A stretch of DNA of 64,000 bases. It comes from a virus. Its lineage: Duplodnaviria > Caudoviricetes. The translations under genes were made by a program, and so were the position numbers. The stretch spans positions 160,001 through 224,000 of IMG/VR virus record IMGVR_UViG_3300027804_002812; one strand, given 5' to 3'. Below the pieces are notes generated by a model. It was given only the letters and a program-made list of their open reading frames with translations. It was not told the DNA's origin and made no database searches. Positions 6,622-13,759 of this stretch are shown here, in pieces (position 1 is the stretch's first letter; each line of letters starts with the position of its first letter).

Positions 6622-6622
6622 G

Positions 6623-6696
6623 TTGGAATAGGTGGACTCGAACCACCAACCTTTCGCGTATCAGACGAATGCTCTAACCAATTGAGCTATATTCCA
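6623..6696 (-). tRNA. tRNA-Ile(GAT)
   Basis: Cloverleaf: TGGAATA/TATTCCA acceptor, loop CT-GAT-AC, TTCGAGT T-loop. Confidence 0.92.
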
Positions 6697-6701
6697 TTAT
6701 G

Positions 6702-6852
6702 CTGTAAGAGATGGATTCGAACCACCACGAGGAGATTCAACAAATAACATATCGCCGGCCGGCTGGTGGTCTACCCCCTCATATTATTTGTCTATTTCTA
6801 ATTCCCCACCCCCGAGACAGGAGGGCTTGTCTGCCAATTTCAACACCTTACA
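6702..6852 (-). ncRNA. Giant tRNA-like RNA (GTC anticodon, about 80-nt variable region)
   Basis: TGTAAGG/TCTTACA acceptor with G73, class II D-arm, CCCTC-CTGTCTC-GGGGG arm, canonical T-arm. Confidence 0.75.
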
Positions 6853-6857
6853 AAAAG

Positions 6858-6942
6858 CAGAGAGTATTGGATTCGAACCAATGCATCCCTTTCGAGATGA
6901 CAGATTAGCAATCTGCTCCTTTAACCACTCAGGCAACTCTCT
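6858..6942 (-). tRNA. tRNA-Ser(GCT)
   Basis: Cloverleaf with long variable arm, loop TT-GCT-AA, G73. Confidence 0.92.
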
Positions 6943-6946
6943 ATTG

Positions 6947-7017
6947 TTATCCTACAAGGATTCGAACCTCGAACGACTGAACCAAAATCAGTAGTGTTAC
7001 CGTTACACCATAGGATA
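6947..7017 (-). tRNA. tRNA-Gln(TTG)
   Basis: TATCCTA/TAGGATA acceptor, loop TT-TTG-GT. Confidence 0.9.
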
Positions 7018-7098
7018 GTTTAGACAGACCTTAGGAGACGTATTATTCTCTTCATTATCCTTGTACTTTAACACCGTGGGAAGCGTGTGTCTGTCTTG

Positions 7099-7180
7099 TG
7101 GGAACGATAGGACTCGAACCTATGAACTCCGAAGAGAGGAGATTTACAGTCTCCGGCAATTGCCGCTATGCGACGTTCCC
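7099..7180 (-). tRNA. tRNA-Tyr(GTA)
   Basis: GGGAACG/CGTTCCC acceptor, loop CT-GTA-AA, long variable arm. Confidence 0.92.
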
Positions 7181-7313
7181 AAAATAAGGAAAGGAGAAGA
7201 TGGTTCCGTGGACATCTCCTTTTACGATTGGCGTTACTACGATGATTCCAAACTCCAAATGTACCACCTCCATCATCAGGTTAACATACATTCCTTCCCC
7301 AATCAACCTTTAG

Positions 7314-7386
7314 CACAGGAGGAGAGAATCGAACTCCCGACAACTGGTTTTGGAGACCAGTGCTCTTCCATCTGAGCTACTCCTGT
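7314..7386 (-). tRNA. tRNA-Trp(CCA)
   Basis: ACAGGAG/CTCCTGT acceptor, loop CT-CCA-AA, G73. Confidence 0.92.
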
Positions 7387-7397
7387 ATTCAACAAAG

Positions 7398-8027
7398 TTA
7401 AATAAATTTGTTCATCAAATTTAACTCTTTTATCAAATCTTTACAATAAAATTTATGACCATTTTCGGACCAATGTCCATCAGATATACGTCCATTTGTT
7501 TCTTCTTTGATGGTTTGATACTTTTGAAATAAACCATTTTGATTCCACCTCCAAATATGTAAAATCATATCTTTCATTACAAATTTTATCATATTCTCCC
7601 AAGCCATACGTTCTTCCTCTATTCCTTTATTCGGATCACGATGTTCTCCCGTAACCCTATTTAGAAGCAAGTTGAGAATAGAATCACTATCAATCCCCCC
7701 CCAATCAATTTGTTCCATCACATTGAATGATCTCCACTCACCATTCTCATCAGTTATTCGAATTCTTGGTTCAGGTGCCCATCCAACAAAAACAATATCA
7801 TTCGGTTTTATTTCTGTAATATTTTCACAAAAAGATTGGAGTATTGAATAGTTATCCCATCCTCCTTGAGCAAAATTTTTGTAATCATATCCCAATTCTT
7901 CAGAAACCAATTTCCCCCATGATTTTGGGAAATATCCTTTCAAATCCTTGTAAAGTTCGAAATTACCAATTCGGTTATTTTCGAAATCCACAGAAAATGA
8001 ATCACCGAATACCCATACTGTTTTCAT
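7398..8027 (-). CDS. SGNH/GDSL-like hydrolase or acyltransferase
   Basis: FGDSF, GGWDN and DGHWSENGH motifs. Confidence 0.65.
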   Translation of the reverse strand: MKTVWVFGDSFSVDFENNRIGNFELYKDLKGYFPKSWGKLVSEELGYDYKNFAQGGWDNYSILQSFCENITEIKPNDIVFVGWAPEPRIRITDENGEWRSFNVMEQIDWGGIDSDSILNLLLNRVTGEHRDPNKGIEEERMAWENMIKFVMKDMILHIWRWNQNGLFQKYQTIKEETNGRISDGHWSENGHKFYCKDLIKELNLMNKFI

Positions 8028-8031
8028 GTGT

Positions 8032-8448
8032 TTATTTTTTCAACAACCAAGACGAAGATTGGATTTTATCGCCAAGTCCATCAATCAACTTAATCCCTAA
8101 CCAATCACATATGTGTCTCTCAGGGATGCTATTGTTAGTTTGGTCTCCACCATTGGCGAATAAGTATTCATCCTCTCTATCCCCCAAAGTATAAATCGTT
8201 TCGAGTGTTTTACAAACAGTTCTATCTGTATCTATGGAGGGGAAAACTCTATCAACCATTTTCAAATTTTGGACGATAAACATTCTCTCATCTTCACTCT
8301 GAAACTCTTTACTACCTTTCAACTCTCTCTGTTTGTCGTTATTGACGATAACATAGAGTTTATCACCATGTTCTTTGGACTTATTGAAATATTCAATATG
8401 TCCCTTATGAACAGGATTAAAATAACCGCTTACAATTACAATTTTCAT
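8032..8448 (-). CDS. Cytidylyltransferase-like nucleotidyltransferase (TagD/RfaE-II type)
   Basis: SGYFNPVHKGH (HxGH), FANGGD, KIQSSS. Confidence 0.85.
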   Translation of the reverse strand: MKIVIVSGYFNPVHKGHIEYFNKSKEHGDKLYVIVNNDKQRELKGSKEFQSEDERMFIVQNLKMVDRVFPSIDTDRTVCKTLETIYTLGDREDEYLFANGGDQTNNSIPERHICDWLGIKLIDGLGDKIQSSSWLLKK

Positions 8449-8464
8449 ATTCTAAAATTAAATG

Positions 8465-8538
8465 AGGTCAGAATCGGATTCGAACCGATGGATACTTGTT
8501 TTGCAGACAAGCCCCTTAAGCCACTTGGGTATCTGACC
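8465..8538 (-). tRNA. tRNA-Cys(GCA)
   Basis: GGTCAGA/TCTGACC acceptor, U73, loop CT-GCA-AA. Confidence 0.92.
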
Positions 8539-8547
8539 ATTTATAAT

Positions 8548-8615
8548 GTGTCAGGACGGGTTTCTAACCCGCTCCTCAGTTAACTACTGTGTGCTGCCAT
8601 TTACACCACCTGACT
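8548..8615 (-). ncRNA. Minimal tRNA-like RNA (AGTCAGG family, no anticodon loop)
   Basis: AGTCAGG/CCTGACA ends, GCGGG-TTAGAAA-CCCGT T-like arm, 4-bp CAGT/ACTG hairpin with 5-nt loop. Confidence 0.6.
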
Positions 8616-8680
8616 AAATTTAGATTTCTAAAACTCATCCTCGAAAGGGTAAAGAAACTCCATCTTATTTGTTTTTTGCG

Positions 8681-8801
8681 TAGTCAGGACAGGATTCGAA
8701 CCTGTACGAAGAGTATGTGTGTCTCTTCTCCTATGGGTTTACCTCAAGGGTTTCCACCTGCCATCGCACGTTGTAGCGTCTACCAATTTCGCCACCTGAC
8801 T
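8681..8801 (-). ncRNA. tRNA-like RNA (AGTCAGG family) with replaced anticodon/variable region
   Basis: AGTCAGGTGGCGAAATTGGTAGACGC...ACAGGTTCGAATCCTGTCCTGACTA. Confidence 0.8.
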
Positions 8802-8885
8802 ATATTAGGTTAGAGGCTGTTAACCATAAGGTCGTACGAAACATCACTTGTACTTCGTGTCAGGGAATTTCCCATACCTCTAAAG

Positions 8886-9028
8886 TAGTCAGGACAGGAT
8901 TCGAACCTGTATGATTGAAAAGACCAATTTTATTCGGTTCTTCGGGATGGTCAACATATTTAATGTGATGTCTCACGGCCCGATTAATCAATCACCCATT
9001 ACACGTCTACCAATTTCGCCACCTGACC
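8886..9028 (-). ncRNA. tRNA-like RNA (AGTCAGG family) with enlarged anticodon and variable arms
   Basis: GGTCAGGTGGCGAAATTGGTAGACGT...ACAGGTTCGAATCCTGTCCTGACTA. Confidence 0.8.
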
Positions 9029-9147
9029 AATGTTTTTAGTTACTTTATCAACACTTCTCCAAGAACCACCTCGGCCAGTTTATATCAATTTCACTTAGGT
9101 TACGTCATGATTCTGCTGGTTAAGCGTCCTCAATCTAAACCCGTTTG

Positions 9148-9221
9148 TACTCCGTACGGGACTCGAACCCGTAAGCTCTCCCGTGAAAGGGGAGTGTCCT
9201 AACCAATTAGACGAACGGAGC
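9148..9221 (-). tRNA. tRNA-Glu(TTC)
   Basis: GCTCCGT/ACGGAGT acceptor, loop CT-TTC-AC. Confidence 0.92.
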
Positions 9222-9233
9222 TTGTTTGTCTTA

Positions 9234-9263
9234 CAAAGATACTACAATATTTCAAAGAACAAA
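9234..9263 (-). promoter_or_regulatory. Bacteroidota-type sigma70 promoter upstream of tRNA-Glu
   Basis: TTTG-N18-TATCTTTG on the minus strand. Confidence 0.55.
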
Positions 9264-9273
9264 AACATGTCAT

Positions 9274-9308
9274 AAAAAAACCCCAAACTTTTTTTAAGAG
9301 TTCGGGGT
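9274..9308 (-). terminator. Attenuator-type intrinsic terminator
   Basis: ACCCCGAACT/AGTTTGGGGT 10-bp stem followed by a U-tract on the minus strand. Confidence 0.85.
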
Positions 9309-9345
9309 CTAAAAATTTAATTTATCTAAATTAAAAAATTACTTT

Positions 9346-9435
9346 CTATGACATCCGAACTACAGGGCAAATACCTTCATACCAACATTTCTCTTGTTGA
9401 CTATTACTGTTAATATGTTGACCTGTAGTTCTCAT
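9346..9435 (-). CDS. Putative 29-aa leader peptide MRTTGQHINSNSQQEKCWYEGICPVVRMS
   Basis: ATG...TAG, 90 nt, between a promoter-like site and the terminator; carries alternative pairing segments. Confidence 0.65.
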   Translation of the reverse strand: MRTTGQHINSNSQQEKCWYEGICPVVRMS

Positions 9436-9452
9436 TGTATTGATAATTACTT

Positions 9453-9483
9453 CTAATGTATGAAATATTTTTATTTTGTCAAA
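9453..9483 (-). promoter_or_regulatory. Promoter of the leader
   Basis: TTTG-N19-TACATTAG, one mismatch to the Bacteroidota TTTG/TAnnTTTG consensus. Confidence 0.55.
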
Positions 9484-9492
9484 TGTTTTTTG

Positions 9493-9566
9493 TATCCCCG
9501 ACACGATTCGAACGTGTGACCCCAAACTTAGAAGGTTTGCGCTCTATCCAGCTGAGCTACGGAGAC
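9493..9566 (-). tRNA. tRNA-Arg(TCT)
   Basis: GTCTCCG/CGGGGAT acceptor, loop CT-TCT-AA. Confidence 0.92.
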
Positions 9567-10070: not shown

Positions 10071-10709
10071 TTATGTTACTCTACCTGGTTTCCAACCGTC
10101 GGGAATAATATCTTCTTTTTTTATTTTTCTATTTTCATCACCATTTGTAATCCATTTTGTACCAAATTGTGAGTTAGATTTTCCGATACCCTTTCCTTTT
10201 TGAACTTCTCTCATTTTTCTTTTGGTCTCCTCGGTGTGAAGCCTATTTCTGAATGTTGCGTGATCAAAATTACTTTTTTGGAATCCCAATTTAATTCGAT
10301 TCGAGAACCACTTATTCCATTCGTCATTCATCAGAAGTTTTTGAACTTCTGGTGACCCTTTAATTAGATTCTTTTTTCCTGCTTCTGAAAATTTATATTT
10401 ATGATTATCGTTTACAAATCCACCAGATCCACCAGGTTTCAGATTCATACACATCGGGTCTTTCAATAAATTTTCATTTACTAATTCTTTTTCTCTTAAA
10501 GACAAAGAAAGCCTATTTGGGAAAAATTCTAAAATTTCGAGCTTAAAATTTTCTTTACCATTTTTCCTAATAGACCTTCTTAATCTAATTCCACTCCCTA
10601 AATAACCATCATTCAGATTATCACTTGAGTGCATACCTATATAAAACTTTCCATTTTTAAGGTTTGTGGTTTTATATATGTAATGATACTTTTTTTGTGG
10701 TCTTGCCAT
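10071..10709 (-). CDS. GIY-YIG homing endonuclease with NUMOD3-like motif
   Basis: YIYKTTNLKNGKFYIG, YLGSG, HTEETKRKMR, GKSNSQFGTKWI. Confidence 0.88.
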   Translation of the reverse strand: MARPQKKYHYIYKTTNLKNGKFYIGMHSSDNLNDGYLGSGIRLRRSIRKNGKENFKLEILEFFPNRLSLSLREKELVNENLLKDPMCMNLKPGGSGGFVNDNHKYKFSEAGKKNLIKGSPEVQKLLMNDEWNKWFSNRIKLGFQKSNFDHATFRNRLHTEETKRKMREVQKGKGIGKSNSQFGTKWITNGDENRKIKKEDIIPDGWKPGRVT

Positions 10710-10760
10710 AACTTATACATTATATATATAAATATAGCAAAGTACAAAAAAGTACTCCGG

Positions 10761-10843
10761 TATCAGAGATGGGAGTCGAACCCACACGAGCTTTCGCCCA
10801 GCAGATTTTAAGTCTGCCATGTATACCATTCCATCACTCCGAC
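10761..10843 (-). tRNA. tRNA-Leu(TAA)
   Basis: Class II cloverleaf, loop CT-TAA-AA, A73. Confidence 0.92.
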
Positions 10844-10869
10844 ATTATTCTACAAATATAATGAAAGTT

Positions 10870-11520
10870 TTAGATACTTTCAACCCGATGTTTCATAATT
10901 TCACAATACTTCTCATCGATTTCATAACTAATAGAGTTGAATCCCAACTCTTGAGCAACCTTACTTGTTGTTCCACTTCCACCGAATACATCGATAATTG
11001 TTTGATTTGGTTGTGCGGTTGTCAAAATAATTCTTCGGATTACTTCCTCAGGAATTTGACAAGGGTGCTCGGTCTTTTCCTTGCTAACATTTTTGACTTG
11101 GTTGATTTCCCACCAATCATAAAGTTTTGCACCAGTCTTTCCTTCAGCAATTCTTTTTTGAATACGTTTGTCTTTGAGATTTTTATATTCCTGTCTGACT
11201 TTCCTAAAGTCAGGTTTACAACCCCACCATGATATCAATCGACTTTGTTTTCCTGTGTTGGAATTATACACCCAACAAACAACCTGTTCACATTTGGCGT
11301 TGATTGCCTTTGGTAACAAGTTGATTGTTTCTTCGGGGTAATGAATGATGACACAAGGGGTTGGGATTTTGGATAATAATTCGATATAATCCTCTTCGCT
11401 TAATTTGTCTTTATATTCGTTGTAAGAATATTCTTGATTATAAGGTGGGTCGGTTATTGTTAATCCTGTTGGTATGTCGCAGTTTCTAAAATCTTCGTTA
11501 ATAATTGTTGTTTCCACCAT
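10870..11520 (-). CDS. N4/N6 DNA methyltransferase (beta class)
   Basis: TDPPY, HPCQIP and DVFGGSGTT motifs. Confidence 0.88.
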   Translation of the reverse strand: MVETTIINEDFRNCDIPTGLTITDPPYNQEYSYNEYKDKLSEEDYIELLSKIPTPCVIIHYPEETINLLPKAINAKCEQVVCWVYNSNTGKQSRLISWWGCKPDFRKVRQEYKNLKDKRIQKRIAEGKTGAKLYDWWEINQVKNVSKEKTEHPCQIPEEVIRRIILTTAQPNQTIIDVFGGSGTTSKVAQELGFNSISYEIDEKYCEIMKHRVESI

Positions 11521-13075: not shown

Positions 13076-13149
13076 TGGGCCTGGTAGGAATCGAACCTAC
13101 TACCTTCACATTATGAGTGTGCCGCTCTAACCGAGTGAGCTACAGGCCC
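13076..13149 (-). tRNA. tRNA-CAT (Ile2-like; elongator Met possible)
   Basis: GGGCCTG/CAGGCCC acceptor, loop CT-CAT-AA; lacks initiator features. Confidence 0.85.
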
Positions 13150-13273: not shown

Positions 13274-13759
13274 ATGAGTACGGTATTAGTTTTGAATTCT
13301 GATTACACTCCTCTGAACGTAACAAGTGTTCAGAGAGGATTTGTATTGGTTACCAAAGGAAAGGCGGAAGTGTTAAGGTCGGATGAAAATCCGATTGTGA
13401 CAGGTTACAAGACGTTTATACGACCCGTTATCATACGACTATTAAAATATATTAGGCATAGAACAAGATTGAACAAACCCAACCGTAGTCGCATTTATAA
13501 AAGGGACGGATATGAGTGTGTTTATTGTGGGTCGAAAAAGAATCTAACCTTAGACCACGTTATACCCAAATCAAGAGGAGGTTCGAATGAATGGACAAAC
13601 TTGGTTACTTGTTGTTCAAAGTGTAATCGAGATAAGGACAACAAAACTCCTGATGAGGCAAAGATGCCAATGAAGAAGCCGGCATACGAACCACCAATAA
13701 TGTATGATGATGTGGCGTTATTAAATGTTTGGACAGATTTCCAAAAATCTTTTGTATAA
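13274..13759 (+). CDS. HNH endonuclease (McrA-like)
   Basis: RDGYECVYCG, LTLDHVIPKSRGG, NLVTCC..CN. Confidence 0.9.
   Translation: MSTVLVLNSDYTPLNVTSVQRGFVLVTKGKAEVLRSDENPIVTGYKTFIRPVIIRLLKYIRHRTRLNKPNRSRIYKRDGYECVYCGSKKNLTLDHVIPKSRGGSNEWTNLVTCCSKCNRDKDNKTPDEAKMPMKKPAYEPPIMYDDVALLNVWTDFQKSFV

Follow-up and report, generated by a model that had tools for sequence, protein, structure and literature searches.

Genes for tRNAs are common in phages, and the usual view of tRNA genes is that their control lies at the promoter and not in attenuation; to our knowledge, the regulation of phage tRNA genes has not been described to date. Attenuation by a leader peptide is a property of amino-acid biosynthetic operons, with trpL, hisL, leuL, thrL and pheL as examples next to the multivalent ilvGMEDA leader, and control of an aminoacyl-tRNA synthetase is found in the pheST operon, which is attenuated via the pheM leader. 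The attenuation of amino-acid operons by leader peptides has been treated in a modelling paper (PMC1183508), and drug-inducible attenuators with a leader ORF are described for mef/msrD, vmlR and bmrCD (PMC4335068, PMC10314930, PMC9226507, PMC4191407).

Here we analysed a cassette on the minus strand of a 64,000-nucleotide stretch of phage DNA (the window), which is most likely a ribosome-mediated (leader-peptide) transcription attenuator controlling a block of phage tRNA genes, a function that is inferred and not shown. On this strand a promoter is followed by an ORF of 29 codons, which is closed by a 10-bp helix, and then by a terminator, a second promoter and tRNA-Glu; a 7-bp pairing with the 5' arm of the terminator competes against this helix. 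The features are as follows.

9492 to 9566, minus strand: tRNA-Arg(TCT), the last gene of the upstream block (ARAGORN and Rfam).
9453 to 9483, minus strand: promoter P1, with a -33 element TTTG(ACA) at 9483-9477, a 16-nt spacer after TTGACA and a -7 box TACATTAG at 9460-9453.
9346 to 9435, minus strand: leader ORF MRTTGQHINSNSQQEKCWYEGICPVVRMS, ATG at 9435-9433, 29 codons, stop TAG at 9348-9346.
9422 to 9431, minus strand: segment 1 GAACTACAGG, ORF nt 5-14 and most of codons 2-5.
9367 to 9423, minus strand: checklist zone, codons 5-23, with codons for Gln, Ile, Ser, Glu, Cys, Trp and Tyr plus the orphans Gly, His, Asn and Lys.
9355 to 9366, minus strand: segment 2 CCTGTAGTTCGG, with its 5' part complementary to segment 1 and AGTTCGG complementary to segment 3.
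9310 to 9345, minus strand: A+U-rich spacer from the stop codon to the terminator, with a small hairpin (from the fold).
9274 to 9309, minus strand: intrinsic terminator, consisting of segment 3 GACCCCGAACT at 9309-9299, a 9-nt loop, segment 4 AGTTTGGGGT at 9289-9280 and seven T to 9274.
9249 to 9260, minus strand: boxA-like word GTTCTTTGAAAT, its function inferred from resemblance only.
9234 to 9266, minus strand: promoter P2, with TTTG at 9263-9260, an 18-nt spacer and a -7 box TATCTTTG at 9241-9234.
6622 to 9221, minus strand: putatively regulated block, comprising tRNA-Glu (9221-9147), three tRNA-like scaffolds, tRNA-Cys (8538-8464), two ORFs and tRNA-Trp, Tyr, Gln, Ser(GCT) and Ile.

The ATG of the leader lies 18 nt downstream of the -7 box of P1, and the pairing of leader nt 5-14 with segment 2, put forward in an earlier note on this DNA, was confirmed in position (9431-9422 with 9366-9357). 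The stem of the terminator counts 11 bp in the window; this terminator is overlooked by a simple terminator scan solely because of its 9-nt loop. All seven downstream tRNAs (Glu, Cys, Trp, Tyr, Gln, Ser-GCT and Ile) were confirmed by ARAGORN and Rfam. Transcripts of the upstream tRNA-Arg(TCT) would run on into the cassette. The 326-kb genome carries the cassette in a single copy, and its first tRNA block (Met at 13149 onward) has a promoter only, without a leader.

With the trpL/hisL-type attenuators the cassette shares a promoter, a short, putatively translated ORF with regulatory codons, mutually exclusive 1:2, 2:3 and 3:4 helices, an intrinsic terminator ahead of the genes under putative control and a position of the stop codon at which a finishing ribosome would mask segment 2. 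Unlike the attenuators of amino-acid operons, it would regulate tRNA genes instead of enzymes, is borne by a phage, has Bacteroidota-type promoters, often with a second promoter after it, and presents a checklist in which up to 15 species are mixed, each with one to three codons, whereas an amino-acid leader presents a run for one amino acid; a leader of the family before a Leu-Arg-Leu unit, described below, is an exception and looks classical. Like pheM/pheST, it would regulate a component of the decoding machinery by the reading speed of cognate leader codons, but pheM responds to one amino acid, regulates a synthetase and not a tRNA, and is chromosomal. T-box riboswitches also let tRNA status choose between terminator and antiterminator upstream of translation-related genes, but they bind uncharged tRNA directly, without ORF or ribosome, by means of a single specifier codon and a T-box sequence that is conserved. 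Rfam returned no T-box at gathering thresholds in the 64-kb window, nor up to E = 10 in 9200-9500. As in the drug-inducible attenuators, a ribosome stalled on the leader ORF would remodel the RNA and relieve the terminator, but in those systems the trigger is a ribosome-bound antibiotic, and leader and cargo show no codon match.

Loci were retrieved from IMG/VR contigs with two terminator patterns, and a sequence-independent finder delivered 153 candidate cassettes. After dropping gene-end false positives, homologous or analogous cassettes remained at 102 viral-contig loci, with 74 distinct leaders in about 22 classes and several unrelated terminator sequences. The dropped candidates, which start with MIEK, MTIEL, MVTLN and a few others, are C-terminal ends of real genes situated before tRNAs; they were excluded by name, and their codons show no match to the tRNAs behind them. 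ARAGORN together with simple rules defined the tRNA calls and the limits of the units. The sequences are related, so that the counts overstate the number of independent events. In the 74 distinct cassettes the leader is kept as an ORF of 19-45 codons, the leader classes share a composition logic and not a sequence, and the spacer between stop and stem varies from 16 to 55 nt among relatives. A host origin was rejected, the terminator pattern giving only 2 matches in 185,579 prokaryote genomes, both in MAG contigs smaller than 6 kb. When the cassette region and a relative with two cassettes were compared by BLAST with 50,697 phage records, only tRNA matches in unrelated phages were returned, and no cultured relative or annotated record was found among those records. 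Rfam yielded no family for the leader RNA at gathering thresholds and nothing relevant up to E = 10, the best candidate, trpB-motif at 21 bits against a cut-off of 59, being noise from the terminator. A search of Pfam with the 29-aa leader peptide gave no family, and the peptide does not qualify as a conserved small protein, given that the nucleotides of its tail, GTAGTTCGG, are conserved but read in different frames. Our search of the literature found no description of such a cassette.

The codon content of the leader links it to the genes behind the terminator. In the window, all seven downstream anticodons have a cognate leader codon, as the earlier note had claimed, and 13 of the 28 leader codons are read by those seven tRNAs. 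That note had cautioned that part of this match is expected by chance. Of random 28-codon stretches from the genome's own long ORFs, 0.75% cover all seven anticodons and only 0.17% do so with at least 13 codons. The match thus exceeds chance already in the window alone; the decisive evidence is comparative. The agreement of the run E-K-C-W-Y with the gene order is true for the window, but the order is not generally kept in relatives, where only the Cys-Trp-Tyr run recurs. Six checklist codons of the window are orphans without a phage tRNA (GGT twice, CAT, AAC, AAT and AAA, for Gly, His, Asn and Lys). In one close relative, L002, the leader is identical to that of the window and the tRNAs for the orphan codons are still present: its block reads Asn, Gly, Glu, Lys, His, Cys, Trp, Tyr, Gln, Ser, Gly, Ile, and leader residues 5-23 comprise these amino acids and no others. 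With its promoter after the terminator and its six orphan codons, the cassette is less clean in the window.

Among 22 class representatives, a mean of 0.93 of the anticodons of a unit have a cognate in-frame leader codon (coverage) and 0.51 of the leader codons are read by the own unit (precision). Deranged pairings of leaders and units reached a coverage of 0.65 +/- 0.04 and a precision of 0.31 +/- 0.03, with 0 of 50,000 attaining the observed values, and the match is specific for the reading frame, the +1 frame giving 0.66 and 0.29 and the +2 frame 0.53 and 0.23 (Wilcoxon p < 4e-4). Every anticodon of the unit is listed in 46 of the 55 complete leaders, when U34 is allowed to read all four family-box codons. 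Within the leaders of the class representatives, codons read by the own tRNAs make up 65% of the checklist zone, compared to 42% of codons 2-4 and 33% from segment 2 onward. From two leader types a third leader was predicted to stand before a Pro-Asn-Gly-Gly-Asp-Thr-Ala-Leu-Arg-Leu sub-array; it was found afterwards, with a different terminator and a matching segment 2, and its residues 3-21 use exactly P, N, G, D, T, A, L and R. The leader before a unit that consists of Leu(TAA)-Arg(TCT)-Leu(TAG) alone contains five TTA, three CTN and four AGA codons, and where tRNA-Pro stands behind another cassette, Pro is absent from the first leader and occurs three times in the other. The co-evolution of leader codons with tRNA content that the earlier note had wanted checked in relatives is therefore borne out, the codons tracking the downstream tRNA set, although several relatives retain codons for lost tRNAs (e.g. 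Ala codons without tRNA-Ala).

The codon families chosen for Arg indicate that the match operates at the level of the anticodon. Beyond codon 4, AGR and CGN codons occur 24 to 4 in units with only Arg(TCT) and 1 to 21 in units with only Arg(ACG) (Fisher p = 7e-9; 0.001 on class representatives). The codon families of Ser follow the anticodon weakly (19:12 versus 10:18), a comparison confounded by Ser codons within segment 2.

The RNA structure is conserved as well. The 191-nt stretch folds at -52.2 kcal/mol (z = -6.4 versus shuffles), and in the fold of every cassette the ORF is closed by the 1:2 helix and followed by the terminator. The 1:2 / 2:3 / 3:4 layout, seen before in the window, holds across relatives, in which the ORF is kept and the helices are kept with compensatory change; the refuting outcome named in the earlier note, a lack of conservation of ORF or pairings in relatives, thus did not occur. 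In alignment A1, helix 1:2 is 82.9% paired, with changes on both sides in 4 of 10 pairs, helix 3:4 is 96.2% paired and both together are 89.6% paired, compared to 11-53% for slid controls; helix 2:3 reaches 92.6% versus 11-53% when slid, with one pair occurring as GC 19, AU 5 and GU 2 times. The nucleotide motif of segment 2 is conserved although it is read in different frames, and unrelated terminators bring their own matching segment 2 (GGATTTAG with CTAAATCC, GTGTTCAG with CTGAACAC). When arms were swapped, segment 2 paired with its own arm at -9.3 kcal/mol, versus -7.1 for the arms of other classes (p = 8e-4). Helix 2:3 is nonetheless the weakest leg of the layout: it is short in the window (7 bp, or -12.9 kcal/mol with a 3-bp extension), amounts to only -5 to -7 kcal/mol in several classes, and is slightly surpassed in four type-C cassettes by the pairing of another G-rich site.

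From these elements we propose the following mechanism. Transcripts would originate at P1 or enter from the tRNA block upstream and would carry the 29-codon ORF as a test, with codons 5-23 as a checklist of one to three codons per tRNA species behind the terminator. If all codons are decoded fast, the ribosome would reach the end of the ORF and cover segment 2 or, in some classes, run past it so that 1:2 re-forms instead; in both cases segments 3 and 4 would fold as the terminator and transcription would stop. If a listed codon is slow because its charged tRNA is scarce, the ribosome, with any queued behind it, would keep segment 1 covered, so that 2:3 pairs, the terminator is blocked and RNA polymerase enters the tRNA genes. 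The new phage tRNAs would restore decoding, closing a negative feedback loop, and in the window P2 would provide a basal input to the block, to which the attenuator adds an inducible share. A thermodynamic footprint model of the window agrees with this in part. A ribosome at codons 2-10 or 20-22 gives P(2:3) of 0.65-0.98 and one from codon 24 to the stop gives P(2:3) = 0, but with a single ribosome stalled at codons 11-19 helix 1:2 re-forms (P = 0.8), so that antitermination there needs a queued second ribosome or slow refolding.

The layout, the conservation of the ORF and the tracking of codons in relatives thus support the attenuator reading of the earlier note, and the direction of the switch is inferred only. 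The same cassette might work by the opposite logic, in which successful translation of the checklist opens 1:2 and promotes read-through (feed-forward) and a stall, or absence of translation, leads to termination; the sign of the switch cannot be fixed from sequence alone. We consider this reversal unlikely. It would have to explain why the layout is that of classical attenuators, where a stall leads to read-through, and why the stop is located inside segment 2 or directly behind it in the window and in most classes, which lets a ribosome that completes the ORF mask this segment, with the model leaving no 2:3 pairing from codon 24 to the stop; moreover, a positive feedback on tRNA supply has no obvious benefit. 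What keeps it alive is that the predicted ground state without a ribosome consists of the 1:2 helix plus the terminator and that MKPINK-type leaders have their stop 24-30 nt past segment 2, where a terminating ribosome would not mask segment 2.

An attenuator of this type has a leader close behind a promoter, and its regulated genes depend on read-through of the terminator. P1 occurs in relatives as an exact TAnnTTTG (e.g. TACCTTTG, TACATTTG, TATCTTTG), and TAnn followed by at least 3 of 4 of TTTG is present at -45 to -8 from the ATG in 51 of 74 cassettes. The caveat of the earlier note on a separate promoter before tRNA-Glu is correct for the window, where a canonical Bacteroidota-type TAnnTTTG follows the terminator (9241-9234), and P2 could supply the tRNAs without any read-through. 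An exact TAnnTTTG after the terminator is found in 49 of 74 distinct cassettes (background 0.1 per 100 nt). The remaining 25 have none, many of them with the first tRNA at 11-47 nt past the stem, and the tRNAs of those phages would therefore have to come from read-through. In 43 of 74 cassettes, a boxA-like word (TTCTTTGA / TYTTTGAMA) stands after the terminator and ahead of the first tRNA. The leader is represented in RNA-library contigs of relatives: one starts at 9445, the expected position of the start site, and extends past the terminator as far as the next tRNA, tRNA-Arg(TCT) and the leader are linked in a metatranscriptome contig from a relative, and a short adapter-flanked RNA-library insert spans 9438-9305 only. 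As these are assembled contigs, in which single transcripts are not shown and carry-over of DNA is not excluded, they constitute weak evidence.

Another reading is a free-standing micro-gene or small RNA that has its own promoter and terminator and merely separates two tRNA units, with the tRNAs made from P2 only. P1, the ORF and the terminator are indeed self-contained, a good promoter follows in the window and in the 49 cassettes mentioned, and the adapter-flanked insert is confined to this very part. Such an element, which would belong to no Pfam family as a peptide and to no Rfam family as an RNA, leaves unexplained the in-frame codons that correspond to the tRNAs of the own block rather than to those of any other, the Arg codon families that follow the anticodon, the peptide tail in different frames with conserved nucleotides, a segment 2 that tracks the terminator arm across unrelated terminators, and the expression of the tRNAs in the 25 cassettes without a downstream promoter, so that we regard it as quite improbable. 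That the codon match would be a mere by-product of general codon adaptation, any phage ORF being rich in codons for phage tRNAs, was tested and is scarcely credible: random gene stretches of these contigs do cover 0.42-0.64 of the unit anticodons by chance, but the fit of a leader to the block behind it exceeds its fit to further blocks from the same phage or related ones (z about 7), for most classes the observed coverage and precision are both attained by less than 1% of such stretches, and the other two frames do not match.

For the leader-peptide attenuator, we could show at the sequence level its anatomy, its conservation, the covariation of its helices, the frame-specific match of codons and anticodons and the co-variation with tRNA content, and we infer the direction of the switch, which rests on a model and on no experiment, as well as the coupling of translation to transcription and the physiological trigger. 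A more far-reaching possibility, which we advance only tentatively and consider more doubtful than the attenuator itself, is that the cassette is a many-in-one sensor of decoding capacity, in which the shortage of any single listed tRNA, caused by a host anticodon nuclease or by phage-induced decay of host tRNA, would induce all replacement tRNAs together. For the attenuator itself, a limitation is that the leader holds only one to three codons per tRNA, far fewer than the his and leu leaders, and the sensitivity to a mild shortage may therefore be low.

Taken together, slow decoding probably leads this freshwater phage to increase its tRNA production. With a leader that names the codons read by its own cargo, the oldest paradigm of RNA switches would reach the decoding machinery itself, under the rule that the leader should predict the tRNA block and that recoding the leader should rewire the response. 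By this rule, tRNA transcription units could be annotated in uncultured phages, and the cassette represents a natural blueprint for sensors of the limiting tRNA and bears on the arms race around tRNA-cleaving defence systems. If the many-in-one sensor proves true, phage tRNA arrays would be inducible modules for counter-defence and homeostasis, and the leaders would form a readable code, of which the content predicts the tRNA cargo in uncultured phages.

The window, which corresponds to bases 160,001-224,000 of a 326-kb IMG/VR virus record, contains 12 tRNA genes, all on the minus strand and within 13149 to 6622. The elements of the putative leader-peptide attenuator described in the earlier note were all found on the minus strand between tRNA-Arg(TCT) and tRNA-Glu(TTC). 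In transcript order, the cassette and its flanks read as follows.

Cassette and flanking features (window positions, all minus strand)
9566-9492, tRNA-Arg(TCT), upstream flank
9483-9477, -33 element TTTGACA of the first promoter, P1
9460-9453, -7 box of P1, TACATTAG
9435-9346, leader ORF of 29 codons, ATG to TAG
9431-9422, segment 1, GAACTACAGG
9366-9355, segment 2, CCTGTAGTTCGG
9345-9310, A+U-rich spacer
9309-9299, segment 3, GACCCCGAACT
9289-9280, segment 4, AGTTTGGGGT, followed by seven T to 9274
9260-9249, boxA-like word, GTTCTTTGAAAT
9241-9234, -7 box of the second promoter, P2, TATCTTTG
9221-9147, tRNA-Glu(TTC), downstream flank

This stretch folds at -52.2 kcal/mol (z = -6.4 compared to shuffles), and the predicted structure is a long hairpin enclosing the entire ORF, followed by the terminator. 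The 10-mer of segment 4 is repeated exactly within the upstream tRNA-Arg (9519-9528, anticodon stem and variable region), so segment 3 could pair there too; the repeat is probably due to chance, since this tRNA-Arg stem differs in the related locus L004.

The central result is that the leader constitutes a checklist of the tRNAs encoded behind the cassette. In one common array, the cassette is followed by tRNAs for Val, Glu, Phe, His, Ser, Ile, Lys, Cys, Trp, Tyr, Gln, Arg, Met, Ile and Ser, and leader residues 5-21 (MVHISSFKQQEICSWYR) comprise exactly the 13 amino acids of that block and none of the seven kinds found only upstream (P, N, G, D, T, A, L). Before looking, we predicted that the sub-array Pro, Asn, Gly, Gly, Asp, Thr, Ala, Leu, Arg, Leu would be preceded by a separate leader composed of these residues. 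This leader was found directly upstream of tRNA-Pro, residues 3-21 (NLNTLLATLAPTNGGGRDL) being exactly the eight amino acids of the sub-array; its cassette has a different terminator (CCCTGAACAC... TGTTCGGGG) and a segment 2 (GTGTTCAG) that fits that terminator. A unit (the tRNAs behind one cassette) with only Leu(TAA), Arg(TCT) and Leu(TAG) has a leader with TTA five times, CTN three times and AGA four times, and leaders fit just as well in units comprising 5-17 tRNAs whose terminators are unrelated. The related locus L002 carries a leader identical to that of the window before a block of Asn, Gly, Glu, Lys, His, Cys, Trp, Tyr, Gln, Ser, Gly and Ile tRNAs, the exact amino acid set of leader residues 5-23.

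The match was quantified on class representatives and compared to deranged pairings and to the other reading frames.

Match between leader codons and unit anticodons (strict wobble rules, 22 class representatives, leaders <60% similar)
Comparison; fraction of unit anticodons having a cognate codon in the leader; fraction of leader codons that the unit reads
Observed, in frame; 0.93; 0.51
Deranged leader/unit pairings; 0.65 +/- 0.04; 0.31 +/- 0.03
Frame +1; 0.66; 0.29
Frame +2; 0.53; 0.23

The observed values were not attained in any of 50,000 derangements (z = 6.8 and 7.4), and stretches drawn at random from real genes on the same contigs attained both in <1% of trials for most classes. As the other frames differ from the ORF frame (Wilcoxon p < 4e-4), the signal is present only when the ORF is read as codons. 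Matched codons are concentrated between segments 1 and 2 (65%); their share is lower in codons 2-4 (42%) and from segment 2 to the end (33%). When U34 was allowed all four family-box codons, 46 of 55 complete leaders listed every anticodon of their unit. Judged from codon usage, the match is at the level of the anticodon: AGR and CGN codons number 24 and 4 where Arg(TCT) is the only arginine tRNA of the unit, versus 1 and 21 where it is Arg(ACG) (Fisher p = 7e-9; 0.001 on class representatives), against a background of 72% AGR in these contigs.

Leaders and arrays also change together. When tRNA-Pro is located behind a second cassette, Pro is absent from the first leader and occurs three times in the second; when the Trp, Tyr and Lys tRNAs are found behind this same second cassette, W, Y and K are lost from the first leader. 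Gly(GCC) together with Gly(TCC) is accompanied by GGC plus GGA/GGG codons. In relatives of the window clade that lack tRNA-Lys, codon 16 encodes Asn rather than Lys; L004, without tRNA-His, has Tyr in place of His, and L032, without a tRNA-Trp call, has Cys in place of Trp. Exceptions exist, as Ala codons persist in some leaders in the absence of tRNA-Ala, and in L017 Cys replaces Trp despite a tRNA-Trp; we read these as a lag following tRNA gain or loss. The window cassette itself is a partly eroded example. Compared to L002, whose flanks are ~94% identical, tRNA-Asn and tRNA-Gly are missing owing to a clean deletion that lies between P2 and tRNA-Glu (window 9222-9233 versus 1908-2076 of oriented L002), and tRNA-Lys and tRNA-His are absent, without remnants anywhere in the genome. 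With the leader unchanged despite these missing tRNAs, the checklist codons GGT (twice), CAT, AAC, AAT and AAA are orphans.

An exact search with both 10-nt arms yielded three viral contigs with cassettes near-identical to that of the window in different flanks. Searching with the terminator alone gave 29 loci, with a homologous promoter-ORF-terminator unit upstream in all untruncated loci, and some 80 additional loci were listed with a second terminator pattern. A finder free of sequence motifs (hairpin and T-run before a tRNA, small ORF before the hairpin) returned 153 candidate cassettes. Leaving out gene-end false positives, we count 74 distinct leaders in 102 loci. The family is phage-specific: among 185,579 prokaryotic species, one genome each, only two matches occurred, each on a MAG contig <6 kb. 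No cultured phage record has the cassette, and the runs containing the sequence are freshwater metagenomes. The promoter consensus of Bacteroidota is known, and the TAnnTTTG boxes, which fit it, point by inference to hosts in this phylum. In some relatives, an array contains two or three cassettes whose leaders differ (e.g. two each in L020 and L059); the second of L059 has a wholly different terminator (CCCCCTAAATCC...) and a 45-codon leader.

Other genes share the region. The regulated block contains three tRNA-like units (8548-9028, minus strand), with a common acceptor stem, a class-II-like D-arm, a T-arm and 70-90-nt inserts in the anticodon-arm position; neither ARAGORN nor Rfam calls them, and their shared 24-30-nt blocks recur many times in L002 between tRNA-Glu and tRNA-Cys. 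Between tRNA-Cys and tRNA-Trp (7398-8448, minus strand), two protein genes, which would be co-transcribed with the tRNAs, encode a 138-aa cytidylyltransferase-like protein (PF01467, E = 2.7e-13) and a 209-aa product without a family assignment. Mobile-element-type genes (GIY-YIG/NUMOD3 endonuclease, N6/N4 DNA methylase, and an ORF divergent from tRNA-Met that is HNH-like from sequence motifs only) are scattered through the tRNA region at 10071-11520 and 13274-13759.

In the predicted folds of all cassettes, segment 1 (codons 2-5) pairs with segment 2 at the ORF end, followed by the terminator. In an alignment of 29 distinct window-class cassettes, 82.9% of cells were paired in helix 1:2 (four pairs changed on both sides) and 96.2% in helix 3:4, the terminator (one such pair), versus 27-49% in slid controls for both together. 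The competing helix 2:3 reached 92.6% (controls 11-53%), with one pair occurring as GC 19, AU 5 and GU 2 times. Segment 2 is conserved in nucleotides while its reading frame varies. Across the whole transcript, the best complement of the terminator 5' arm lies at the ORF end in 24 of 29 cassettes and likewise in classes with unrelated terminators, and pairing with the own arm (-9.3 kcal/mol) is stronger than with arms of other classes (-7.1 kcal/mol, p = 8e-4). Helix 2:3 is short and remains the weakest leg of the switch argument. Its dependence on ribosome position was modelled with footprints on the window transcript ending just before segment 4.

Predicted pairing by ribosome position
Stalled at codons 2-10: P(2:3) 0.93-0.98, P(1:2) about 0
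Single ribosome stalled at codons 11-19: P(2:3) about 0.5, P(1:2) about 0.8 (helix re-forms)
Codons 11-19 with a queued second ribosome: P(2:3) 0.98, P(1:2) 0
Stalled at codons 20-22: P(2:3) 0.65-0.95, P(1:2) 0.5 falling to 0
Codon 24 to stop: P(2:3) 0, P(1:2) 0 (segment 2 covered)

The earlier note's caveat of a separate promoter before tRNA-Glu holds for the window, where the -7 box of P2 is canonical for Bacteroidota and TTTG lies 18 nt upstream of it. An exact TAnnTTTG follows the terminator in 49 of 74 cassettes (about 4 expected by chance) and is lacking in 25; in many of the latter the first tRNA starts 11-47 nt past the stem, with at most a boxA-like word in between. Lacking this promoter, the tRNAs of those phages would be made only via terminator read-through, which argues for a terminator that is conditional by design. 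In 43 of 74 cassettes (window 9249-9260, also L005-L121), the boxA-like word (GTTCTTTGA[C/A]AT...TTGG) precedes the first tRNA, downstream of the terminator or of P2, and may be an antitermination signal as in rRNA operons or a processing signal. Six metatranscriptomic runs contain part of the stretch, and relatives' contigs from four were placed on the window. One starts at 9445, the expected P1 start site, and extends past the terminator into the following tRNA. Another links tRNA-Arg with the leader, its end falling at 9304 within segment 3. A contig beginning at 9260, ahead of the P2 -7 box, covers tRNA-Glu, and one adapter-flanked insert spans 9438-9305. This support is weak, as contigs are not single transcripts and DNA carry-over is uncontrolled.

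Full-text literature searches (subscription journals outside coverage) returned no description of leader peptides or attenuators before tRNA genes. The mechanism class, ribosome-mediated attenuation, is already known; what is new is the cargo of tRNA genes, the mixture of codons in the checklist and the occurrence in phages. The most likely model, which is inferred, shares the logic of classical leader-peptide attenuators, in that complete translation of the leader would lead to termination and a stall within the checklist to read-through. Read-through would then supply the tRNAs whose shortage had stalled the ribosome, closing a negative feedback loop, and in the window this would add an inducible share to basal input from P2. 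Based on attenuation modelling principles (PMC1183508), one to three codons per tRNA would be better suited to severe depletion than to mild starvation.
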